Shown in pieces: positions 1-35,133 of a stretch of 64,000 bases of DNA (positions are counted from its first letter, which is position 1; each line of letters begins with the position of its first letter). The translations under genes were made by a program, and so were the position numbers. The stretch is from positions 70,788 to 134,787 of the forward strand of contig JAVCBW010000034.1 in NCBI GenBank assembly GCA_037917675.1. The letters are read 5' to 3'. Source of the stretch: Thermoproteota archaeon (GTDB lineage: Archaea > Korarchaeota > Korarchaeia > B14-G2). The notes beneath the pieces are model-generated. The model made no database searches. It worked only from the letters and a program-made list of their open reading frames with translations, and was not told the origin of the DNA.

Positions 1-2064
1 GACATCGGTGGAACCTTCACAGACTTAGTTGCGCTGAGTGATGATGGTGAGCTTATCAACATAAAGGTACCGAGCACACCGCTAGCTCCAGAGAAGGGTG
101 TTGTAGAAGCCTTAGTTGAGCTTCTAGCTGAGGTCAGTCCAGATGAGATAGATGTCGTTGTCCACGCGACCACCATAGCTACGAACGCTCTCCTAGGGCA
201 GAAGGGGCTGAGCCTCCCGAAGACAGCTCTAATAACTACAAGGGGCTTCAGAGACATCATTGAAATAGGGAGGCAGAGGAGACCTAGACTCTACGACATC
301 TTTTTCACGAAGCCTAGGCCTCTAGTCGAGAGGAGATATAGGTATGAGGTGACAGAGAGGATAGGGCCGAGAGGAGAGGTCATAAAACCCCTGAGCACTA
401 GCGAAGTTGAAGATGCGGTTAAGGACATGCTTAAAGAGGGTGTTGAGGCTGCTGCAATAGGATTCCTGAACTCCTATGTGAACCCAGCTCACGAGCTTGA
501 GGCTAAGAGGGTATTGCAGGAGATGGCTCCAAGCCTACATGTGACAGCTAGCTGCGAGATTTCACCAGAATACAGGGAATATGAGAGGATCAGCACTGCT
601 GTCGTGAACTCGGTCCTTAAGCCCATAGTGTCTCTCTACGTTAAGAGACTTGAGAGCGAGCTCAGATCTCTCGGGGTCATGGCTCCACTCTACGTAATGC
701 AGAGCAATGGAGGAATGGCTTCTACAGGCGTCGTGTCAGAGGCTCCAGTGACAGTAGTAGAGTCAGGGCCTGCTGCTGGGGTGATAGCTGCAGCATTCTA
801 TAGCAGAGCTCTAGGGGTGAGCAACGTCATAAGCTTCGACATGGGTGGGACGACAGCTAAGGCAGGCTCAATATTCAGAGGGACACCAGAGCAGGTGGCA
901 GAGTATGAGGTCGCTGGAGAGATTCATAAAGGTAGAGTAGTGAAGGGAAGCGGCTATCCAGTCAGGTTTCCATTCATAGATCTAGTTGAATGCAGTGCTG
1001 GAGGAGGAACTATAGCATGGGTCGACAAGGGAGGAGCGCTGAGGGTAGGCCCAGTGAGTGCTGGAGCAGACCCTGGGCCAGCATGCTATGGGCAGGGTGG
1101 AGAGGACCCTACGATAACGGATGCAAACCTGTTGCTAGGTAGGCTTAACCCCAGGTACCTGCTAGGAGGTAGGAAGAGGATATACAGAGAGCTAGCTGAG
1201 AAGGCCTTCAGAGAGAAGATATGTGAGCTGCTTGGAGCAGACTTGACTGAGGCTGCCATTGCAGTCATCGAGCTAGCGAACACAGAGATGTCAAAGATCC
1301 TCAGGATAGTCTCAGTTGAGAGGGGATATGACCCAAGAGACTTCTCTATGATAGCATTTGGAGGAGCAGGCCCAATGCACGCCTGCGCTCTAGCTGAGGA
1401 GCTCGATGTTAAGGAGGTGGTAATCCCTCCCAACCCAGGGCTCTTCTCAGCTCTAGGCCTCCTAGCAGCAGACTTCCAGCATGACTTCACTAAAGCTGTG
1501 ATGTCTAGGGCAAGTGAGCTGGAGCCAGCTAGCGTAGAGGAGGTTTTCAGGGAGCTAGAGGAGAGAGGCTCCAGGATCCTAGAGGAGGAGGGGGTCAGCC
1601 AGAGCCAGATGTCTTTCATCAGGAAGCTAGACCTCAGATATATCGGGCAGGCATATGAGCTCACTGTGCCGGCTTCAAGTCCCTTCGACAAGAGAGCTCT
1701 AGAGCAGGTGATAGAGGCATTCCACAGGAGGCACGAGGAAGTCTATGGGTATGCTGCGAGAGAGGAGGAAGTATATGTAGTCAATGCTAGGGTTACCGCA
1801 GTAGGCATCGTGAGAAAGCCTAAGCTGAAGAGGTATGTAGCTGGAGGAAGCCAGCCGCCAGCTCAAGCTGTGATCGAGGAGAGAGAAGCCTACTTCAGTA
1901 GAGGCTATGAGAGATGCAAGGTCTATCAGAGAGAGAAGCTGAAGCCTGGGAACACGATTGAGGGACCTGCTGTGATAGAGCAGTATGACTCAACTACAGT
2001 AGTGCACCCTAGCTTCCAGGCTACAGTAGACGAGTTCAGTAATCTCGTCTTAAGGAGGTGCTGA
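1..2064 (+). CDS. hyuA: Hydantoinase/5-oxoprolinase subunit A (5' end lies just outside the window)
   Basis: Base 1 reads DIGGTFTD in the same frame as ORF 349..2064, so the gene runs off the left edge. Also has ESGPAAG, DMGGTT, SAGADPGPACY and AFGGAGPMHA motifs. Confidence 0.92.
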   Translation, partial: DIGGTFTDLVALSDDGELINIKVPSTPLAPEKGVVEALVELLAEVSPDEIDVVVHATTIATNALLGQKGLSLPKTALITTRGFRDIIEIGRQRRPRLYDIFFTKPRPLVERRYRYEVTERIGPRGEVIKPLSTSEVEDAVKDMLKEGVEAAAIGFLNSYVNPAHELEAKRVLQEMAPSLHVTASCEISPEYREYERISTAVVNSVLKPIVSLYVKRLESELRSLGVMAPLYVMQSNGGMASTGVVSEAPVTVVESGPAAGVIAAAFYSRALGVSNVISFDMGGTTAKAGSIFRGTPEQVAEYEVAGEIHKGRVVKGSGYPVRFPFIDLVECSAGGGTIAWVDKGGALRVGPVSAGADPGPACYGQGGEDPTITDANLLLGRLNPRYLLGGRKRIYRELAEKAFREKICELLGADLTEAAIAVIELANTEMSKILRIVSVERGYDPRDFSMIAFGGAGPMHACALAEELDVKEVVIPPNPGLFSALGLLAADFQHDFTKAVMSRASELEPASVEEVFRELEERGSRILEEEGVSQSQMSFIRKLDLRYIGQAYELTVPASSPFDKRALEQVIEAFHRRHEEVYGYAAREEEVYVVNARVTAVGIVRKPKLKRYVAGGSQPPAQAVIEEREAYFSRGYERCKVYQREKLKPGNTIEGPAVIEQYDSTTVVHPSFQATVDEFSNLVLRRC

Positions 2065-3776
2065 ACATGGTCGTCGATTTAGTCACTATAGGTGTGGTCA
2101 AGGGGAAGCTGACGTATGCAGCTGAAGAAATGGGGATAGCACTCAGGAAGTCAGCTTACTCACCGAACATAAAGGAGAGAATGGACCACTCATGCGCGAT
2201 ATTCGACGCCGAGAAGAGGCTTGTAGCTCAGGCAGAGCACATCCCCGTCCACCTAGGCTCCATGATCCTAGCAGTCCAGCAGGGCTTAGCAAGCTACCGT
2301 GGTGAGCTGGAGGAGGGAGACATGCTCCTCTTCAATGACCCCTACATAAGTGGTACTCACCTACCTGATATGACGCTGATTGCTCCAGTCTACTATAGAG
2401 GAGAGGTCATAGCTTATGTTGCGAATAAAGCTCACCACTCAGATGTAGGGGGGAAGGCTCCTGGAAGCATGCCAGGCGACTCAGCTGAGCTGTTCGAAGA
2501 AGGCATCATAATACCTCCAGTGAAGCTCGTTAAAGGAGGTAGGATAGACAGGGAGATAGCTGAGATCATCTTGAGCAACGTCAGGACACCAAGAGAGAGG
2601 ATGGGTGACCTGAGGGCTCAAGTTGCAGCAAACTTCCTCGGCATCAGGAGGATCATAGAGCTAGCTGAGAAGTATGGAGTAGAGAAGCTTGAGGCAGCTA
2701 TTGAGGAGATCTTGGCTCACTCAGAGCGCATGATGCGCCACGAGATAGAGAAGATACCTGATGGCGTATATAAGGCTGAAGACTACCTTGAGGACACAGG
2801 TACATCAGATGAACCTGTCAAGATAGCTGTAGAGGTCACAGTGAGAGGAGACTCCATCAGGTTCGACTACACTGGCACTTCACTACAGGTCGATGCCCCA
2901 GTCAATGCTCCCCTTGGAGTGACTCTAGCAGGAGTCTTCTATGTTATGATCTGCATCACAGACCCTAGCATACCAGTCAATGATGGCTGCTATAGGCCTA
3001 TTGAAGTCCATGTCCCAGAGGGCACACTGCTGAACCCGAGGAGGCCTGCTGCAGTCTGCGGTGGAAACGTAGAGACATCTCAGAGGAATGTAGACACTCT
3101 CTTCAAGGCTCTAGCCCAGGCAGTTCCAGATAGGGTGTGTGCTGCAGGCTCAGGCACCATGAACAACATAAGCGTAGGGGGGGTTGACCCAAGGTCAGGT
3201 GAGCTCTGGGCTTTCTATGAGACCATAGGTGGAGGCTATGGGGCCAGACCTGGGCTAGATGGAGTCGACGGCGTACATGTCCACATGACCAACACAATGA
3301 ACACGCCGATAGAGGCTATAGAAGCCCAGTTTCCAATATTATTCCTCAGCTACAAGCTCAGAGAGGACAGTGGTGGCCCAGGGAAGTGGAGAGGTGGCTG
3401 CGGGATAGAGAGGAGCTGGAAGCTCCTAGCTCCATCAGCAACCCTCTCCATTCTAGCTGAGAGAAACAAGATGAGGCCATGGGGGCTCATGGGAGGCTTG
3501 GAGGGTGCTGCTGGAGAGCACCTCATAATAAGGGGAGGCACGGCTATGAGGCTGAAGTCTAAGTGCACGGTGAGGCTCCAGAAGGGAGATGTTCTTGTAG
3601 TGAGGACCCCAGGTGGAGGAGGCTATGGGAACCCACTTGAGAGGAGCATAGAGCTTGTCCTCAAGGATGTGAGGGATGGCCTAGTTTCACCTGAGGCAGC
3701 CCACAGGTACTACGGGGTTACAGTAGATCCTGAAACATGCCATGTCTACAGGCTACACAAGCTTCAGGGCCTTTGA
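2058..3776 (+). CDS. hyuB: Hydantoinase B/5-oxoprolinase subunit B
   Basis: SPNIKERMDHSCAIFD, HIPVHLG, NDPY..GTHLPD, HHSDVGG, TPGGGGYG motifs. Overlaps hyuA; GGAGGTG SD precedes ATG 2067. Confidence 0.92.
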   Translation: MLNMVVDLVTIGVVKGKLTYAAEEMGIALRKSAYSPNIKERMDHSCAIFDAEKRLVAQAEHIPVHLGSMILAVQQGLASYRGELEEGDMLLFNDPYISGTHLPDMTLIAPVYYRGEVIAYVANKAHHSDVGGKAPGSMPGDSAELFEEGIIIPPVKLVKGGRIDREIAEIILSNVRTPRERMGDLRAQVAANFLGIRRIIELAEKYGVEKLEAAIEEILAHSERMMRHEIEKIPDGVYKAEDYLEDTGTSDEPVKIAVEVTVRGDSIRFDYTGTSLQVDAPVNAPLGVTLAGVFYVMICITDPSIPVNDGCYRPIEVHVPEGTLLNPRRPAAVCGGNVETSQRNVDTLFKALAQAVPDRVCAAGSGTMNNISVGGVDPRSGELWAFYETIGGGYGARPGLDGVDGVHVHMTNTMNTPIEAIEAQFPILFLSYKLREDSGGPGKWRGGCGIERSWKLLAPSATLSILAERNKMRPWGLMGGLEGAAGEHLIIRGGTAMRLKSKCTVRLQKGDVLVVRTPGGGGYGNPLERSIELVLKDVRDGLVSPEAAHRYYGVTVDPETCHVYRLHKLQGL

Positions 3777-3959
3777 AGCCTTGAGAAGCATTGAGCTAGA
3801 CTCGGAAGCCTGTTGTGGAAAGCACCTGGCCTCTGTGGCTACGCTAACGCCTTAAGAGTTAGGCTACATCAGTCTCAGCTGCTATAGCAGCTCAACACCC
3901 TCAGCTGCATGCTCTCTGCTGCCAGCAACCTTTAAAGGAAAACCTGACGCTGAGCTCCC

Positions 3960-4592
3960 ATGTTACCGAGGATAGGCCTGCTTAGAGCTATAGTCGAGGG
4001 TGTGCTACAACTCATATCTGATGGAGGATATGTCGCTATCGGCTTCCTGATGGCTCTTGAAAGCGCGCTGATGCCTGTCCCCAGTGAGGTTGTAATGCCA
4101 TTCGCAGGCTACCTTGCCTATCTAGGTGTGCTCAGCCTCACTACCGCCACGATAGCTGGCTCCATCGGGAACCTGATAGGCTCTCTACTAGCCTACTATG
4201 CTGGGCTCTATGGGGGGAGGAGGTTTGTGGAGAAATATGGCCGCTACCTGATGCTGAGCAGGAGGCATCTAAGGCTTGCTGAAGAGTTTTTCTCTAGATA
4301 TGGGAGTGCTGCTGTGCTTATCTCACGTATGCTGCCAGTCATAAGGACTGTGATAGCCTTCCCAGCTGGTGTAGGGAGGATGAACCTAGCTAGGTTCTCA
4401 CTCTCCACTCTAGTTGGCTCTCTGCCATGGTGCTATGCGCTAGCCTACTCTGGCTACAGGCTAGGGCCCTACTGGAGCAAGGCTATGGAGCTCACTGAGA
4501 GCCTTGAGCTCGTCATCCTCCTAGCAGCTCCACCTGCCCTATACCTCATCTATAGGACACTGAAAGCTGGCAGTATGGAGGAGGATACTTAG
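3960..4592 (+). CDS. DedA family membrane protein
   Basis: LESALMPVPSEVVMPFAG and SRMLPVIRT motifs; TTTAAA at 3931. Confidence 0.9.
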   Translation: MLPRIGLLRAIVEGVLQLISDGGYVAIGFLMALESALMPVPSEVVMPFAGYLAYLGVLSLTTATIAGSIGNLIGSLLAYYAGLYGGRRFVEKYGRYLMLSRRHLRLAEEFFSRYGSAAVLISRMLPVIRTVIAFPAGVGRMNLARFSLSTLVGSLPWCYALAYSGYRLGPYWSKAMELTESLELVILLAAPPALYLIYRTLKAGSMEEDT

Positions 4593-4900
4593 GCTTAGGC
4601 GCTGCTAGTATAGTCTCCGCTTCAGGTTGAGCTGTGTCCAAGCATGATCTCACTGCTTAGCCTCTAGGTTAATCAGAGCTTTCTCTACAGCATATGTAGC
4701 TTTCTCCGCTGTCTGCCTACGCAGCCTGAAGTCTCCTAGCACAGCTCCTGGCCTCGTCTCCTCTAGGCTCCAGGTCTCTAAGTAGCTTAAGGCTGGAAGC
4801 TCTGTTGTAGGCTTGGCAGTGGAGGAAGTAGGGCTCTCCTCTCTTGACTACAGCTGACTTTAGCTCCATGATCCTTCTAGGAGGATGGAAGCTGGCTCCT

Positions 4901-5452
4901 CTAGGGGAGGCCGAGAGCAGCAAGCAAGCCTACTGAAATGAAGAGGGCTGAGGAGGCTAGCCTCAGAGGCCTCTCAGGGATCCTCTCACCGATCTTGTCT
5001 CCTATGGCTGCTGTGGCAGCTGCAGCAGTAGAGAGGGCTAGGAGAGATCCAGTGAACACAGCTAGCGGAGACCCTGTAGCTGCTGCAAACGCCATGCTAG
5101 ACAGCTGAGTTTTGTCTCCTAGCTCAGCTAGGAAGACTGATGTGAACACTGTAGCTATGGTGCCGGCTTCTCTCTTCTTCTCAGCTCTACTCCTCAAGCT
5201 GAGCACTCCAGCTGCAGTGAACATGGCTCCAGCTGCAGCTCTCACAGCTCTCTCTGGGAGCATGCATCCAGTATAGTAGCCTAGAGCTATGCTTACAGCC
5301 TGGACTAAAGCGAAGGCTGGTATGGCTCCAGCTATCGTCCTAGCTGCCCCAGCTCTCAAGCTGAAGGCCAAGACAGCTAGCTGGGTCTTGTCAGCTAGCT
5401 CAGCTACCAAGACTGCCGTGAAAACAGCTAGGAGAAGCTTCCAAGCTAGCAC
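4901..5452 (-). CDS. TMEM165/GDT1 (UPF0016) Ca2+/Mn2+ transporter
   Basis: Two copies of the E-x-G-D-K-T-Q-type signature (AELADKTQL, AELGDKTQL); hydrophobic. Confidence 0.88.
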   Translation of the reverse strand: MLAWKLLLAVFTAVLVAELADKTQLAVLAFSLRAGAARTIAGAIPAFALVQAVSIALGYYTGCMLPERAVRAAAGAMFTAAGVLSLRSRAEKKREAGTIATVFTSVFLAELGDKTQLSSMAFAAATGSPLAVFTGSLLALSTAAAATAAIGDKIGERIPERPLRLASSALFISVGLLAALGLP

Positions 5453-5588
5453 ATGCAGCTAGGGTCAGCCTGGTATATAAGCTAGCCTACAGCTACTATG
5501 AGCTCAATAGCCATAAGCTCGTAGATGAATGCTCACATAGCTCAGATACGCTTAAATATGGCATGTGAGCTCAGTCAGGTGGGTAGCC

Positions 5589-6566
5589 ATGGGGCTATGG
5601 AAACTGAGGCTATCCATGTTAGGTACTCTAGCCTTGATCATAGGGATATCAACCTTGCTGTTCACAGTAGTGCTGAGCTACATAGGTACCTTAAGCCTCT
5701 TCTCACTGGCCACATTCGTGGTAGGCTTCAACCTACTCCAGTGGCTTATCGCACCATACATCATAGACATGATGTATGGTGTGAGAGAGGCTCCTAGGGA
5801 AAGCTACCCCCAGCTCTATAGGATGGTAGAGGAGATATCCTCTAGGGCAGGTGTCAGGACGCCTAGGGTGATGATAGCTAGACTACCTGTCCCAAATGCC
5901 TTCGCCTATGGGTCGCCGATAGCTGGGACGAGGGTAGCTGTCACAGAGGCTCTACTGAGCACCCTCGAGGAAGAGGAGGTAGAAGCTGTGATAGGGCATG
6001 AGCTAGGGCACATAAAGCACAGAGACATGCAGGTGATGATGTTTGCATCAGTTCTGCCAGCAATCTTCTACTACATAGGCTACAGCCTCATGCTCTCATC
6101 ATGGTATAGAGGTGGGAGAGAAGAGGAGCAGGGGCCTTCAGCTGCTCTGCTAGGCTTCCTCTTCATGGCAGTCTACTGGGTCCTGACCATGCTAGTCTTA
6201 CACCTCAGTAGGCTCAGAGAATACTATGCTGACAGGTTCAGTGCTGAGAACGTCTATGATGGGGCAAGGAAGCTGATGGAGGCGCTAGCCAAGATAGTGG
6301 CCTTCACAGGCAGGCTTAGATCCAATCTGGCTTCAGAGGGAGCTAGAGTAGGGAGCTTTAAAGCCCTGTTCATAAGCGACCCAGATACAGCAGACAGAGA
6401 TCTCACCTACCTGAGAGGCTATATGAGAGACCAGGAGCTGGTCAAGCAGATCATGTCTAGAGGGATAACTACAGCAGAGAGAATAGCTGAGCTATTCTCA
6501 ACACACCCGAACATAGTGAAGAGGCTGAGAGCTCTACAGGAGATAGCTGGGATAGCATACGTGTAG
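5589..6566 (+). CDS. htpX: HtpX zinc metalloprotease (M48)
   Basis: PNAFAYG, HELGH (HExxH), SRLREYYAD, LFSTHP. ATG 5589 follows a GGTGG SD. Confidence 0.92.
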   Translation: MGLWKLRLSMLGTLALIIGISTLLFTVVLSYIGTLSLFSLATFVVGFNLLQWLIAPYIIDMMYGVREAPRESYPQLYRMVEEISSRAGVRTPRVMIARLPVPNAFAYGSPIAGTRVAVTEALLSTLEEEEVEAVIGHELGHIKHRDMQVMMFASVLPAIFYYIGYSLMLSSWYRGGREEEQGPSAALLGFLFMAVYWVLTMLVLHLSRLREYYADRFSAENVYDGARKLMEALAKIVAFTGRLRSNLASEGARVGSFKALFISDPDTADRDLTYLRGYMRDQELVKQIMSRGITTAERIAELFSTHPNIVKRLRALQEIAGIAYV

Positions 6567-6573
6567 ACCAGCT

Positions 6574-7176
6574 ATGGGCTGGCTCACACCATTCTCACAG
6601 CCAGCTAAGCCAGTCCCCTGGAGGAGAATAAGGTCATGGGCATGTACTAGCTGCGGAGAGTGCTGTAGACACTTCCGTGTCCCACTGGCTCCACTAGAGT
6701 ATGCTAGGATCCTCAGAGTATTTGGGTCATGGCCTATTGAGATCAGGATAGGGAGAGCATATCTGAGGAAGAAGCCTGATGGCAGATGTGTGTTCCAGTA
6801 CAGGCTTGGTGGAGTGTGGCTCTGTGGTATCCAGAGCTTCAAGCCTCTGGCATGTAAGCTCTGGCCTATCAAGCCTCTTGAGAAGCCTAAGTATGGGAGA
6901 AGTCAGGAGGCAGCCTTCTACTCTAGGCATGGAGAGTTCTATGTCTACCTAGATCCAAGATGTCCTGGAGTGGAGCTAGGTGAGCCTACACCTAAGCTGG
7001 CTACAGCCATAGCTGAGGCTATAGACCTCATGTATAATCTAAGCAGACCTCAGAAGTACACTACATCACAGCTTGCTCCTCTTCAGGTAGCTGGAGTAGG
7101 AGTACATGGCCTTGAGCACCCTAGCACACTCCTCTATGCTCCAATACGTAGGTATCCTCATGGATTCCAGCCTTGA
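6574..7176 (+). CDS. YkgJ-family CxxCxxCC cysteine-cluster protein
   Basis: CTSCGECC, then CVF, C, KPLACKLWP and CPG. Confidence 0.8.
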   Translation: MGWLTPFSQPAKPVPWRRIRSWACTSCGECCRHFRVPLAPLEYARILRVFGSWPIEIRIGRAYLRKKPDGRCVFQYRLGGVWLCGIQSFKPLACKLWPIKPLEKPKYGRSQEAAFYSRHGEFYVYLDPRCPGVELGEPTPKLATAIAEAIDLMYNLSRPQKYTTSQLAPLQVAGVGVHGLEHPSTLLYAPIRRYPHGFQP

Positions 7177-31877: not shown

Positions 31878-32082
31878 GCACCTCTCTAGCTACTTCCTCA
31901 CTTCTGAACTCGAATCCCTCTGTCCTAGCTCTAGACTCATCCATTGCTGCCATAGCCTGCTTTACCTTCTCCTCTCTTATCTTCCGCCTGACAGCCTCTC
32001 TGAGGTACTCAGGCCAGTTTATCCTGATCCTCTGCATCTCCTCCTTAACCTCCTTAGGTACCCTGAACGAGACTACAGGCAT
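31831..32082 (-). CDS. vapB: VapB-type ribbon-helix-helix antitoxin
   Basis: VVSFRVPKEVKEEM..INWPEYLREAV RHH pattern immediately upstream of PIN gene. Confidence 0.82.
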   Translation of the reverse strand: MPVVSFRVPKEVKEEMQRIRINWPEYLREAVRRKIREEKVKQAMAAMDESRARTEGFEFRSEEVAREVREQLEEDSSRCKRSL

Positions 32083-32221
32083 AGTATCAACCTTGACTCT
32101 CTTTCACAACGCATGTGTACCCAGCTTACTGTCTTAGACACACATGTCTGTATTGATAGTATTGGAGCTAATCTTGCTATAAAAGTCTACCTGAGATTAC
32201 TGCTTCAATAGCGCTCATAGC

Positions 32222-33830
32222 CTAGTGGTATAGCCTCCTCAAGACAGCTGAGGGAGGCATCCCAACTATGCTATAGACTTTGATCTCCTCCTTCCTCCCC
32301 TCCAGCTCAGAGAGGAAGGCTTGGAGCACGAGAAGAACGCAGATCGAAGCTGGTATCACTGAGGCTTTAGCAGCGTCTCCACCCAGCAGGACTGGCATGT
32401 ACTCCTTAGAGTACCTGGCTGAAAGCCCATTCCTGTTCACCCAAACATGGTATCCGACATACCAGCCTGCAGCTCCTCCGATGCTATGCTCCTCAACGAG
32501 CCTAGGTGCTCTAGTGAAGCTCTCCTCGTCCTCTGGTATCACATAGTGTACTCTCCCAGCTCCAGGGAGTGACCTAGGGTGGCTTGTGCTATAGACTATG
32601 AGAGCCTTTATAGAAGGCTGAAGCCTAGCTCCAGTAGCATCTCTCAGCTCACTCATGGACTTCATGTGGCCTAGCAGCCCAACCAGCTTGCCCTCTATGC
32701 TGACATACTTGGCCAGCGAGCTCCCAGCTCTGAGGCCACCTACCCCATAGACTGTGAGGTTCACGCTGTCACCTAGCTTGGCTCCTATGTACTCAGCATA
32801 CCTATCTGTGACCAGGGCTGCGATCTCGCTCCACTTAGGCAGCCTTCCAGCTGGGAGGAAGCTCTCTAGCCTGAAGAGCACATCTAGGGCCTGAGGGTCT
32901 GTGCCAGGACTATCGCAGCGTTCAGCTCAGCGCCGTTCAGCGTTATCCTAGTTATGTTCCAGCACCAACCTCATAGCTGCTGACATAGTACCTACCTTGG
33001 TACCTCGGTGTCACATACCTCTCGAGGAGCTCTGAGCTGAAGTAGGTTCTGCTCCACTCGACTGCTATGCTGTCTGCGCAAGGTGCTCTGCCAGCTAAGG
33101 TTCCTGTAGCCCATACGCCGACTGGACTGAGACTAGCACTAGCATGGATGCGACAACTAGCGCTACTGAAGCCACTGTGGAAGCTGACTGCATGCTTCTA
33201 GCTCTAAGCTGGTAGCTACAGAACCTGAAGCTAAAGCTCCTTGACGTGGTCTCACATGCCAGCAGTGAAGCTAGGCTGGAGAAGGCTGCTGAAGCAAGCC
33301 ACCCAGCCTCACTCAGTGTCCAGCTGCTCAGCCTGAAGGCTCTGGAGAAGAGCCAGGCTGAAGCCAATGTGACAGCTTTTGAGGCGGTTGCGGGATGGGA
33401 CAGGATACGACCCATCTGGAGAAGAGCCAGGCTGAAGCCAATGTGACAGAGCTGCCTAGGACGCTGAACCAGCTGAACACAGCTAGGAAAAATGAGGGGT
33501 GCAGCCTCCATAGAGCCTGCTATCTGAGCTAGGCTAGCTGAAGAGGAGTATGAGGAGGCCTATGGTGAATGCTGAGGAGAGCTTCAGCCCACTAAGCTTT
33601 AGGTCAACTGACTTCCTAGCTGTGCTCAGGAGCCCTACTGAGGCCTTGAGCTTGAGGTCAGCTTCCTCTCTAGCTCCAGCAAGCTCCTTGCCTTCTCTAG
33701 CCTTCTCAGCTGCTTCACAAGCCATGGAGAGCTCTAGGCTCATGTTGAGCCTAAGGTGCTCAAGTGCTCTGGCATAGCTGCTCACATATGCCTCCATGTC
33801 AGCTGGCTCACTGATAGGGGTGTGAGCCAC
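32222..33830 (-). pseudogene. Fragmented large FtsX-like ABC permease relic
   Basis: Fragments in several frames with stops. Includes RKEEIKVYSIVGMPP (FtsX ERxxEIxxxxxxG-like) and LRARSMQSASTVASVALVVAS (FtsX N-terminal LRRRxxRSxLT-like). Confidence 0.6.
33341..33449. repeat. Perfect 35-bp direct repeat flanking a 39-bp insert
   Basis: TCTGGAGAAGAGCCAGGCTGAAGCCAATGTGACAG at 33341-33375 and 33415-33449; spacer 33376-33414. Confidence 0.95.
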
Positions 33831-33888
33831 CTACATGCTAGGAGAGCTGCTGAGATAGCTGCCAGCAGGGCTAGAGGCTTCTTCAGCA

Positions 33889-35133
33889 TCACTCACCTAG
33901 AGAGGTGAAGAATGCCTTCATCCTCTCCATGGCTTCCATCAGCTTATGAGGCTCCTCGACGACTGGAGCATAAGAGAGCCTGACCCACCCCTCACATCCG
34001 AAGTCTACTCCAGGAGCGAGCGCAACCTGCCACTCGCTTAGAAGCCTGCTGCATAGCTCCCTTGAGCTGCTGATGTAGCTTGAGGCATCGAAGAATAGGT
34101 AGAAGCCGCCATCTGGCTCAAGCACCTTAGCCTCTGGAGCCGCCTCACTCAGAGCCCTATAGGCCTCAGCAGCTATTCCAGCATACCTCTCAGCTCCATT
34201 AGAGTAGAACTCCCTTATCCTCCTGAAGATGCCCTCTCTGCTCAGCAGCCTAGCTAGCGCTGCTTGAGCTAGTGAGCTCGAAGCTAGGGTTGAGGCCTGC
34301 TCTATGGTTTCCACAGCTCTAGCAAGATCAGGGTCAGCTATGATGTAGCCTAGCCTCCATCCTGGGATCCTCATCTCCTTTGAGAGCGTGCACACAAATA
34401 TCTCACACTCTCTCCTCTCTCTACTGTAGTAGCTTGGGTAGCTGCTGAAGCAGAAGGCCCTGTAGGCGACGTCTAATGCAAGCCAGACTCCCTTTTCCTC
34501 AGCTATGTCAGCAACCCCCTCATACACCTCTGGTGGGATTATCTTGCCATCTGGGTTTCCTGGTGAGACCAAGATGATCATTCTAGGCTTCCTCTCCGAG
34601 ATAAGCTCCTGGAGGCCATCTAAGCTAGGGGAGTACTCTCCGCCAGCTAGGCAGTTCCAGTAAGCTAGCCTAGGTGGAGCTCCAGCTGCAACGGCTAGCT
34701 GCCTGCTGTAGTTCAGGTATGTTGGCCTGGCCACTACTACTGTCTCTCCGCTGTCAACTACAGCACGCATGAGAGCTGTGATCAAGTCTGTGCTGCCACA
34801 GCCTAATACGAGCTCTCTGCTCTCACAGCTCCTCCCGAACACCTCCTTCTCATAGCTGCATAGGAGCTCAAGCAGGTCTCCTCGCCCCCTCGTAGGAGTG
34901 TACCTTGACGAGAGCTTGAAGAGCTCTCTGCTCCCAGCTATCTCAAGCAGAGCTTCCCTGAGCTCCTCCATAGGTGGGTCCTGAGGCCATCCTCCACCAA
35001 GATAGATGAGCTCCCTAGGATACTTCTCAGGGTGTAGCCTGTAATCCTCTACTACACTCATTATCTCCCTTATGGAGCTTGGGTTTTCGAGCGTGTATCT
35101 AGCTAAGCTCGATAACTCCCCTCTCATGCTCAT
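33889..35133 (-). CDS. PLP-dependent aminotransferase class I/II
   Basis: PGNPDG, LDVAY, TLSKEMRIPGWRLG (PLP lysine), WVRLSY. Confidence 0.9.
   Translation of the reverse strand: MSMRGELSSLARYTLENPSSIREIMSVVEDYRLHPEKYPRELIYLGGGWPQDPPMEELREALLEIAGSRELFKLSSRYTPTRGRGDLLELLCSYEKEVFGRSCESRELVLGCGSTDLITALMRAVVDSGETVVVARPTYLNYSRQLAVAAGAPPRLAYWNCLAGGEYSPSLDGLQELISERKPRMIILVSPGNPDGKIIPPEVYEGVADIAEEKGVWLALDVAYRAFCFSSYPSYYSRERRECEIFVCTLSKEMRIPGWRLGYIIADPDLARAVETIEQASTLASSSLAQAALARLLSREGIFRRIREFYSNGAERYAGIAAEAYRALSEAAPEAKVLEPDGGFYLFFDASSYISSSRELCSRLLSEWQVALAPGVDFGCEGWVRLSYAPVVEEPHKLMEAMERMKAFFTSLGE

Follow-up and report, generated by a model that had tools for sequence, protein, structure and literature searches.

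Non-canonical integration by Cas1-Cas2 is said to generate neo-CRISPR units in Escherichia coli, reportedly described by Nivala, Shipman and Church in Nat Microbiol in 2018. Here, we analyze a unit of similar layout, an exact 35-bp direct repeat around a 39-bp insert, that lies within a broken FtsX-like permease gene of an uncultivated archaeon. The stretch of DNA analyzed, referred to throughout as the window, comprises 64,000 nucleotides (contig C21, positions 70788-134787) of the host assembly G000, a genome binned from a metagenome (62 contigs, 1.78 Mb).

The available portions of the published sources attribute off-target integration in E. coli to Nivala et al. 2018 (10.1101/148544, PMC7054753) and describe the E. 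coli events as seen under Cas1-Cas2 overproduction (PMC11788318, PMC7054753). For natural cases, the accessible text of one source speaks of 'circumstantial evidence ... in two other species' (10.1101/148544). Pyrococcus furiosus Cas1-Cas2 also integrates at non-CRISPR sites in vitro, by paired attacks one repeat length apart; according to the available part of that study, the sites used are only partly repeat-like, and an off-target site was 43% identical to the repeat (PMC6698737).

Judging from its sequence features, the unit in the window is likely to be a natural off-target (ectopic) full-site spacer integration made by the genome's own Cas1-Cas2 (with Cas4). An earlier note on this DNA had read it as an ectopic spacer acquisition that helped to inactivate the permease. 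The acquisition is supported by the geometry of the unit, the cas genes of the genome, an empty site in a sister genome, both repeat-insert junctions and a second unit elsewhere in the assembly, whereas the inactivating role is not shown, because the gene has further lesions, namely five 1-nt frameshifts and a truncation at its 3' end.

The unit and its empty site

As the earlier note had claimed, two identical 35-nt copies surround a 39-nt insert; the distance from start to start is 74 nt (Table 1). A repeat search of the window gave 100% identity between the copies. The duplication is exactly 35 bp and cannot be extended, the preceding base being C at copy 1 and A at copy 2 and the following base likewise C and A. 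Across the whole assembly the 35-mer has two copies only, both at this locus, and the 39-mer is present once, with all 26 of the insert's 14-mer matches falling at the locus itself. The repeat search also returned a third 'copy' of 60% identity at 33149-33183, which is probably compositional. Tandem Repeats Finder has no entry at the unit, and an Rfam search over the window found one tRNA and nothing else.

Table 1. Coordinates of the unit and of its host gene, counted from the first letter of the window
Feature	Position	Strand	Remarks
FtsX-like permease pseudogene hosting the unit	32222..33830	-	Orthologue of an intact 719-aa open reading frame (ORF) of the sister genome G001; stops in all three minus-strand frames
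138-aa ORF open across the unit	33095..33511	-	Frame regained after ~38 altered residues
Copy 1 of the duplicated 35-bp target	33341..33375	.	Host coding sequence, not a CRISPR repeat; single diverged copy in G001
Spacer-like 39-bp insert	33376..33414	.	Unique in the genome, CG-rich, not in G001; no match in any searched collection
Copy 2 of the duplicated 35-bp target	33415..33449	.	Identical to copy 1; a 99-nt metagenome contig spans 33346-33444

Several other structures were considered for the unit and rejected. A canonical CRISPR array does not fit a single unit whose repeat is host coding DNA with 12/35 identity to the CRISPR repeat of the genome. An insertion sequence or a miniature inverted-repeat transposable element does not fit a single-copy insert of 39 nt, with no terminal inverted repeat by eye, inside a duplication of 35 bp. 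Tandem duplication within a protein repeat was likewise rejected, as the period is 74 nt and the intervening 39 nt are unrelated to the copies and absent from the orthologue.

The junctions were followed in Logan contigs (built from 31-nt words) of two sediment-metagenome runs, X1 and X2, which come from two studies; a third run, X3, yielded no contig here. Both X1 and X2 have a contig that stops within copy 1, another that starts within copy 2, and a third, of 99 nt, in which the insert is flanked by 30 nt from either copy and which matches the window with 0 differences. Both repeat-insert junctions are therefore real, since independent contigs of two runs carry them; no single contig runs across the full 109 nt. 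The depth of the insert was 130.7 in X1 and 85.2 in X2, and that of the flanks was 165.8 and 235.7 in X1 and 115.5 and 131.7 in X2. The 35-nt repeat node reached 314 (X1) and 207 (X2), about twice its neighbors and approximately the sum of flank and insert depth. The lower depth of the insert would fit a mixture of filled and empty sites at C21, but Logan depths are whole-contig means and 31-nt words cannot separate alleles, so no claim is drawn from these values.

These contigs also bear on whether the unit is an assembly artifact, a false loop in the graph at the 35-nt repeat. In favor of a false loop, the 31-nt-word graph is interrupted at the repeat, and none of the contigs reaches from one end of the unit to the other. 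Against it, the words specific to the insert are bordered by repeat sequence at either end, with 0 differences, in both runs, which come from separate studies; the depth of the repeat node is close to that of flank plus insert; and the insert occurs nowhere else in the genome. We consider an artifact of this kind extremely unlikely.

Among the 41 genomes searched, G001, of the same genus, is the only relative with homologous DNA of real length. In the alignment, the 35-mer is present in G001 once, in diverged form, and exactly 74 nt are lacking, with flanks 77-84% identical to the window; this empty site lies inside an intact gene. The duplicated 35-mer is thus host coding DNA, because G001 has a single orthologous copy. 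In the surrounding orthologous DNA about one site in six differs between G000 and G001, whereas the duplicated copies are identical at 35/35 positions, which indicates that the duplication is young and derived. On this comparison, the event is young relative to the split between G000 and G001.

The reverse polarity would make the repeat-insert-repeat arrangement ancestral, with G001 having lost 74 nt by recombination between the copies. The observed empty site is just what a deletion between two direct repeats would produce. Homologous proteins were sought to root the permease gene, but P0001, the G001 protein itself, was the sole one retrieved; the polarity at C21 is therefore argued from copy identity. 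That identity (35/35, vs 82.8% for the orthologous DNA) is itself hard to reconcile with an ancestral unit. The insert also disrupts the frame of the permease gene, whose G001 orthologue is intact, and at the second unit, described below, two outgroups and an allele in the same assembly have no insert. An ancestral unit is, on balance, hardly credible. Searches of G001, which has the empty site of both units, turned up neither cas1 nor the CRISPR repeat. This agrees with the integration reading, but at ~91% completeness of G001 it does not prove absence, and it is one comparison only.

The resident CRISPR-Cas system and a second unit

The only assembled CRISPR array of the genome, C29:7533-7787, contains four exact 35-nt repeats and spacers of 38, 38 and 39 nt, giving periods of 73, 73 and 74. 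An A-rich stretch precedes the array, which runs off the end of its contig. The adaptation genes are located on C34, where cas1 (C34:4028-4879, E 6e-70; TIGR00287 4.2e-70), the only cas1-family gene found in the genome, lies beside cas2 (1.4e-15), cas4 (2e-39) and cas6 (PADLOC 2.1e-30); the complete set reads cas6, an unnamed gene, cas1, cas2 and cas4. Both C29 and C34 share the CTAG/AGCT-rich signature of C21, measured as density.

The geometry of the window unit (35 + 39 = 74) equals that of the array, which favors the reading of the insert as a CRISPR spacer. In the mechanism that we propose, Cas1-Cas2 would have carried a prespacer of ~39 nt, and the integrase would have joined it to opposite strands of a non-CRISPR site at positions 35 bp apart, keeping the stagger that it uses at a CRISPR repeat. 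Gap repair would then have duplicated 35 bp of host coding sequence on both sides of the new spacer. Because the duplicated sequence is not a CRISPR repeat, Cas6 should not process the unit, which would make it a scar and not a working immune memory.

Among the 40 genomes of the class, one (the host genome itself) has the CRISPR repeat; a search of genome contigs gave none, and one metagenome contig of another organism carries it. This last contig, L017, holds a related 35-nt repeat with periods of 72-74 and spacers of 37-39 nt over 6 intervals. Its array (L017:1790-2270) belongs to an AT-rich organism; the repeat shares the stem and the 3' end with that of the present genome, and the last, degenerate repeat matches the present CRISPR repeat over 25 nt. 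The array region of C29 (L003; 7533-7812) is preceded, at 2043-6579, by four genes whose similarity to Csm4 and RAMP proteins is weak and by a CasR/Csa3-like regulator; together they may form a divergent type III effector module. A DUF2797-like gene accompanies the adaptation genes on C34 (L002), a short contig of its own.

The whole assembly was scanned for further units with 35-nt windows, taking matches of at least 30/35 at distances of 40-200 nt. At distances of 73-75 the scan gave only the array's three repeat pairs, the C21 unit and one unit on C44, which argues that the 35-bp duplication is not a chance feature. Nearly all other matches fell at multiples of 3 and represent tandem repeats within proteins, and no other isolated unit of different geometry was present at 40-200 nt. 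Older, decayed units were sought at a threshold of at least 23/35; the two candidates returned, C25:22185 and C57:71342 (73-74 nt), were both rejected as compositional on inspection. An exact 39-nt direct repeat at C54:71775-72080, with copies 267 nt apart, is unrelated to the unit. It encodes a Cys-rich CxxCxxC stretch (by eye), which suggests two ferredoxin-like clusters kept identical.

The second unit (C44:28844-28955; L011:2845-2956) is an exact 37-bp duplication around a 38-nt insert, with a period of 75. It is in frame within an open reading frame, to which it adds 25 residues. G001 is without exactly these 75 nt, and two outgroup homologues of the open reading frame (G023 and G033, of another family, 35-36% identity) are without the 25 residues. 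In the same assembly, contig C61 (L020) opens, at positions 1-117, with 40 nt of the left flank, followed by a single 37-mer and the right flank, all identical to C44. Because C61 carries the empty allele, empty and filled alleles are both represented in the reads and the unit is polymorphic. The assembler broke its contigs at this bubble, and the 77-nt overlaps suggest that it used 77-nt words. The longer duplication may reflect a 35-36-bp stagger plus 1-2 chance matches at the spacer ends, or imprecision of the integrase where the ruler motifs of the repeat are missing.

The chances are about even that off-target Cas1-Cas2 integration is an ongoing natural mutagen in this archaeal population, with at least two recent events caught while still segregating.

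Inserts, target sites and host gene

The insert in the window contains three CG dinucleotides and neither AGCT nor CTAG, in agreement with the remarks on composition made from the letters alone. The probability of at least three CG in a random genomic 39-mer is 0.04, which by itself is mildly unusual. The C44 insert also has three CG, and the two together hold 6 CG in 77 nt with no AGCT or CTAG; at least six CG in random genomic pairs has a probability of 0.005. The canonical array spacers have 2, 3 and 3 CG (8 CG in 115 nt), and the genome background is 19 CG per kb. By this measure, both inserts look like array spacers and not like the host. G000 as a whole is depleted in CG and very rich in the words CTAG (9.5 per kb) and AGCT (17.7 per kb); its contigs fall in two bands of CTAG density, at ~11 per kb and at ~6-8 per kb. 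CTAG is usually rare in prokaryotes.

Searches for the source of the inserts gave the following results. The exact 39-mer had no match in viral contigs, and blastn of it against phages and plasmids returned chance matches only (E at least 2). Its inner 24-mer was absent from metagenome contigs and genome contigs, and a search of the 40 genomes of the class with up to three mismatches returned the locus itself only. A 24-mer of the C44 insert had no match in viral contigs, the full 38-mer had none in phages, and neither did the whole C29 array. When both inserts and the three canonical spacers were compared with the genome by blastn-short, the best foreign match was 16 nt with one mismatch (12-13 nt exact). 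The search of the host genome and of viral and plasmid collections for the 39-mer thus yielded no protospacer and hence no protospacer-adjacent motif (PAM), so the case for a foreign origin of the 39-mer is a compositional one. The viruses of this host are probably unsampled.

The missing protospacer is one of the observations that would also fit a repair or replication accident independent of Cas proteins, by template switching or end joining, in which 35 bp were duplicated around 39 bp of filler and the CRISPR geometry is coincidental. The target has no significant likeness to the CRISPR repeat, and the host gene, with five other indels, is decaying anyway. Filler DNA tends to be a copy of neighboring sequence, yet the C21 insert has no better second match in the genome than 12 nt, and both inserts are compositionally foreign. 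Coincidence would moreover have to account for two independent events, at C21 and C44, with periods of 74-75 and inserts of 38-39 nt beside array periods of 73-74, and for the absence of any other isolated geometry at 40-200 nt. An accident of this kind is therefore unlikely.

Two events of like geometry in one genome, with inserts for which no source was found, could alternatively point to an integrase or mobile element distinct from Cas1-Cas2, one whose target duplications are ~35-37 bp long and whose footprint is ~38-39 bp. Against this, the two inserts share no sequence, neither recurs in the genome, and the 39-mer ends in no terminal inverted repeat that is visible by eye. The lengths equal those of the resident array, and the sole cas1-family gene found adjoins cas2 and cas4. 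We regard an element of this type as very unlikely.

The target sites were compared with the CRISPR repeat. Site 1, on C21, agrees at 12/35 positions (null mean 8.8, SD 2.7; P for at least 12 = 0.16), and site 2, on C44, at 16/35 in the best of four registers tried. The word AGCT directly abuts one side of both duplications, at 33450-33453 of the window and at C44:28840-28843, and follows both sites in the orientations that give 12/35 and 16/35. Its chance expectation is ~4% per site, for an observation that is post hoc and comes from two sites and several registers. Repeat likeness and an abutting AGCT at both target sites are suggestive only.

Several points weigh against integration by the resident Cas1-Cas2. 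No protospacer turned up for either insert in phages, in plasmids, in viral, metagenome or genome contigs, in the genome or in the 40 genomes of the class, and the C21 target is not clearly repeat-like (12/35, P 0.16). The duplication at C44 is 37 bp and not 35. The genome's own range of spacer lengths comes from three spacers, because the array runs off its contig. Both the array and the cas genes come from short contigs, in a genome obtained by binning, and their link to C21 consists of binning and composition. With 31-nt words, no one contig can extend over all 109 nt of the unit. Finally, the geometry, the presence of the enzymes, the derived insertion and both junctions are established, whereas catalysis by Cas1-Cas2 is what we infer from them.

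The host gene was compared with its orthologue in G001, which is intact (719 aa), lies directly after the same aminotransferase gene as in the window, and encodes a protein with the FtsX-like permease domain PF02687 (E 9.8e-13). In the window, stops are abundant in every minus-strand frame of 32882-33890. The two genes are 82.8% identical as DNA (1328/1604 positions), and relative to G001 the window copy has gained 1 nt at 33542, 1 nt at 33492 and the 74 nt of the unit, and has lost 1 nt at each of 33109, 32959 and 32904; homology ends at 32242. Between 32900 and 33900, the Logan contigs of the two runs agree with the window; no difference is listed at the unit, and the sole other letter in that stretch occurs in a 38-nt piece from X2 at 33730-33767. 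Owing to this agreement, the frameshifts at 33542, 33492, 33109 and 32959 are not assembly errors; the one at 32904 sits 4 nt from the edge of the stretch checked.

The extra nucleotide at 33492 lies 43 nt upstream of the unit in the orientation of the gene, and together with the 74 nt of the unit it makes 75 nt; therefore, the frame is regained and the 138-aa open reading frame stays open across the unit. This extra nucleotide could be a compensating change or chance. The minus-strand frame that had been restored on paper, by deleting one repeat and the insert, is borne out by the orthologue, in which FLAAFSYLSALGSSVALASAWFFSRAFRLSSW in G001 corresponds to FLAVFSWFSVLGSSVTLASAWLFSR in the window frame. 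The order of the lesions in the pseudogene cannot be told from the sequence, and the part of the unit in inactivation is unproven. At the 3' end of the gene, comparison of 32082-32243 with L005:2625-3907 shows that ~1.1 kb of G001 sequence is missing in G000 between the permease and an antitoxin/PIN (vapBC-like) pair. The missing stretch corresponds to the last ~200 permease codons and a 151-aa open reading frame.

Implications and relation to described systems

For sequence data alone the case is unusually complete, as it combines array geometry, adaptation genes, an exact empty site in a sister genome and the co-occurring alleles of a second event. If the reading is true, CRISPR adaptation measurably causes gene disruption and coding insertions in the wild, besides seeding possible new arrays. 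Insertions in genes that break the frame or add residues would then provide a natural measure of the collateral cost of adaptation, and the units would support the idea that new arrays start from such seeds. A duplication of repeat length around an insert of spacer length also gives a search rule for scars in other genomes. The two loci supply defined target sites for the site rules of the integrase of an uncultivated archaeon, although two sites give no statistically secure motif.

Within the same genome, the unit resembles the canonical array C29:7533-7787 in its repeat-spacer-repeat layout and in its repeat and spacer lengths. It differs in that the 'repeat' is host coding sequence (12/35), and that the unit is single, is without a leader and lies inside a gene. 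Ectopic acquisition at Streptococcus thermophilus CRISPR3 is similar in that integration occurs away from the leader-proximal repeat; according to the available portion of that source, those events take place inside the array at true repeats, whereas the present ones are outside any array (PMC7999890).

The P. furiosus reactions, as far as the accessible text describes them, share the opposite-strand attacks one repeat length apart, at 30-31 bp there and 35-37 bp here (PMC6698737). Identity of the sites to the repeat is 43% for one P. furiosus site (PMC6698737) and 34% and 46% for the two sites reported here. That work used plasmids and purified proteins, whereas the units described here are chromosomal, repaired and inherited, and belong to another organism with a different repeat length.

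The E. coli neo-CRISPR units, insofar as the sources were available, have in common with the window unit a spacer-sized insert, a repeat-length duplication, a non-CRISPR chromosomal site and Cas1-Cas2 in the genome. Unlike those units, the present ones are natural and come from an uncultivated archaeon with 35-nt repeats and a Cas4-bearing module, and they are accompanied by an empty site in the sister genome and by a segregating allele. The kind of event is already known from E. coli and from in vitro work; what is new is that the setting is natural and archaeal, that the empty site is exact and that a second event, in frame, is still segregating.

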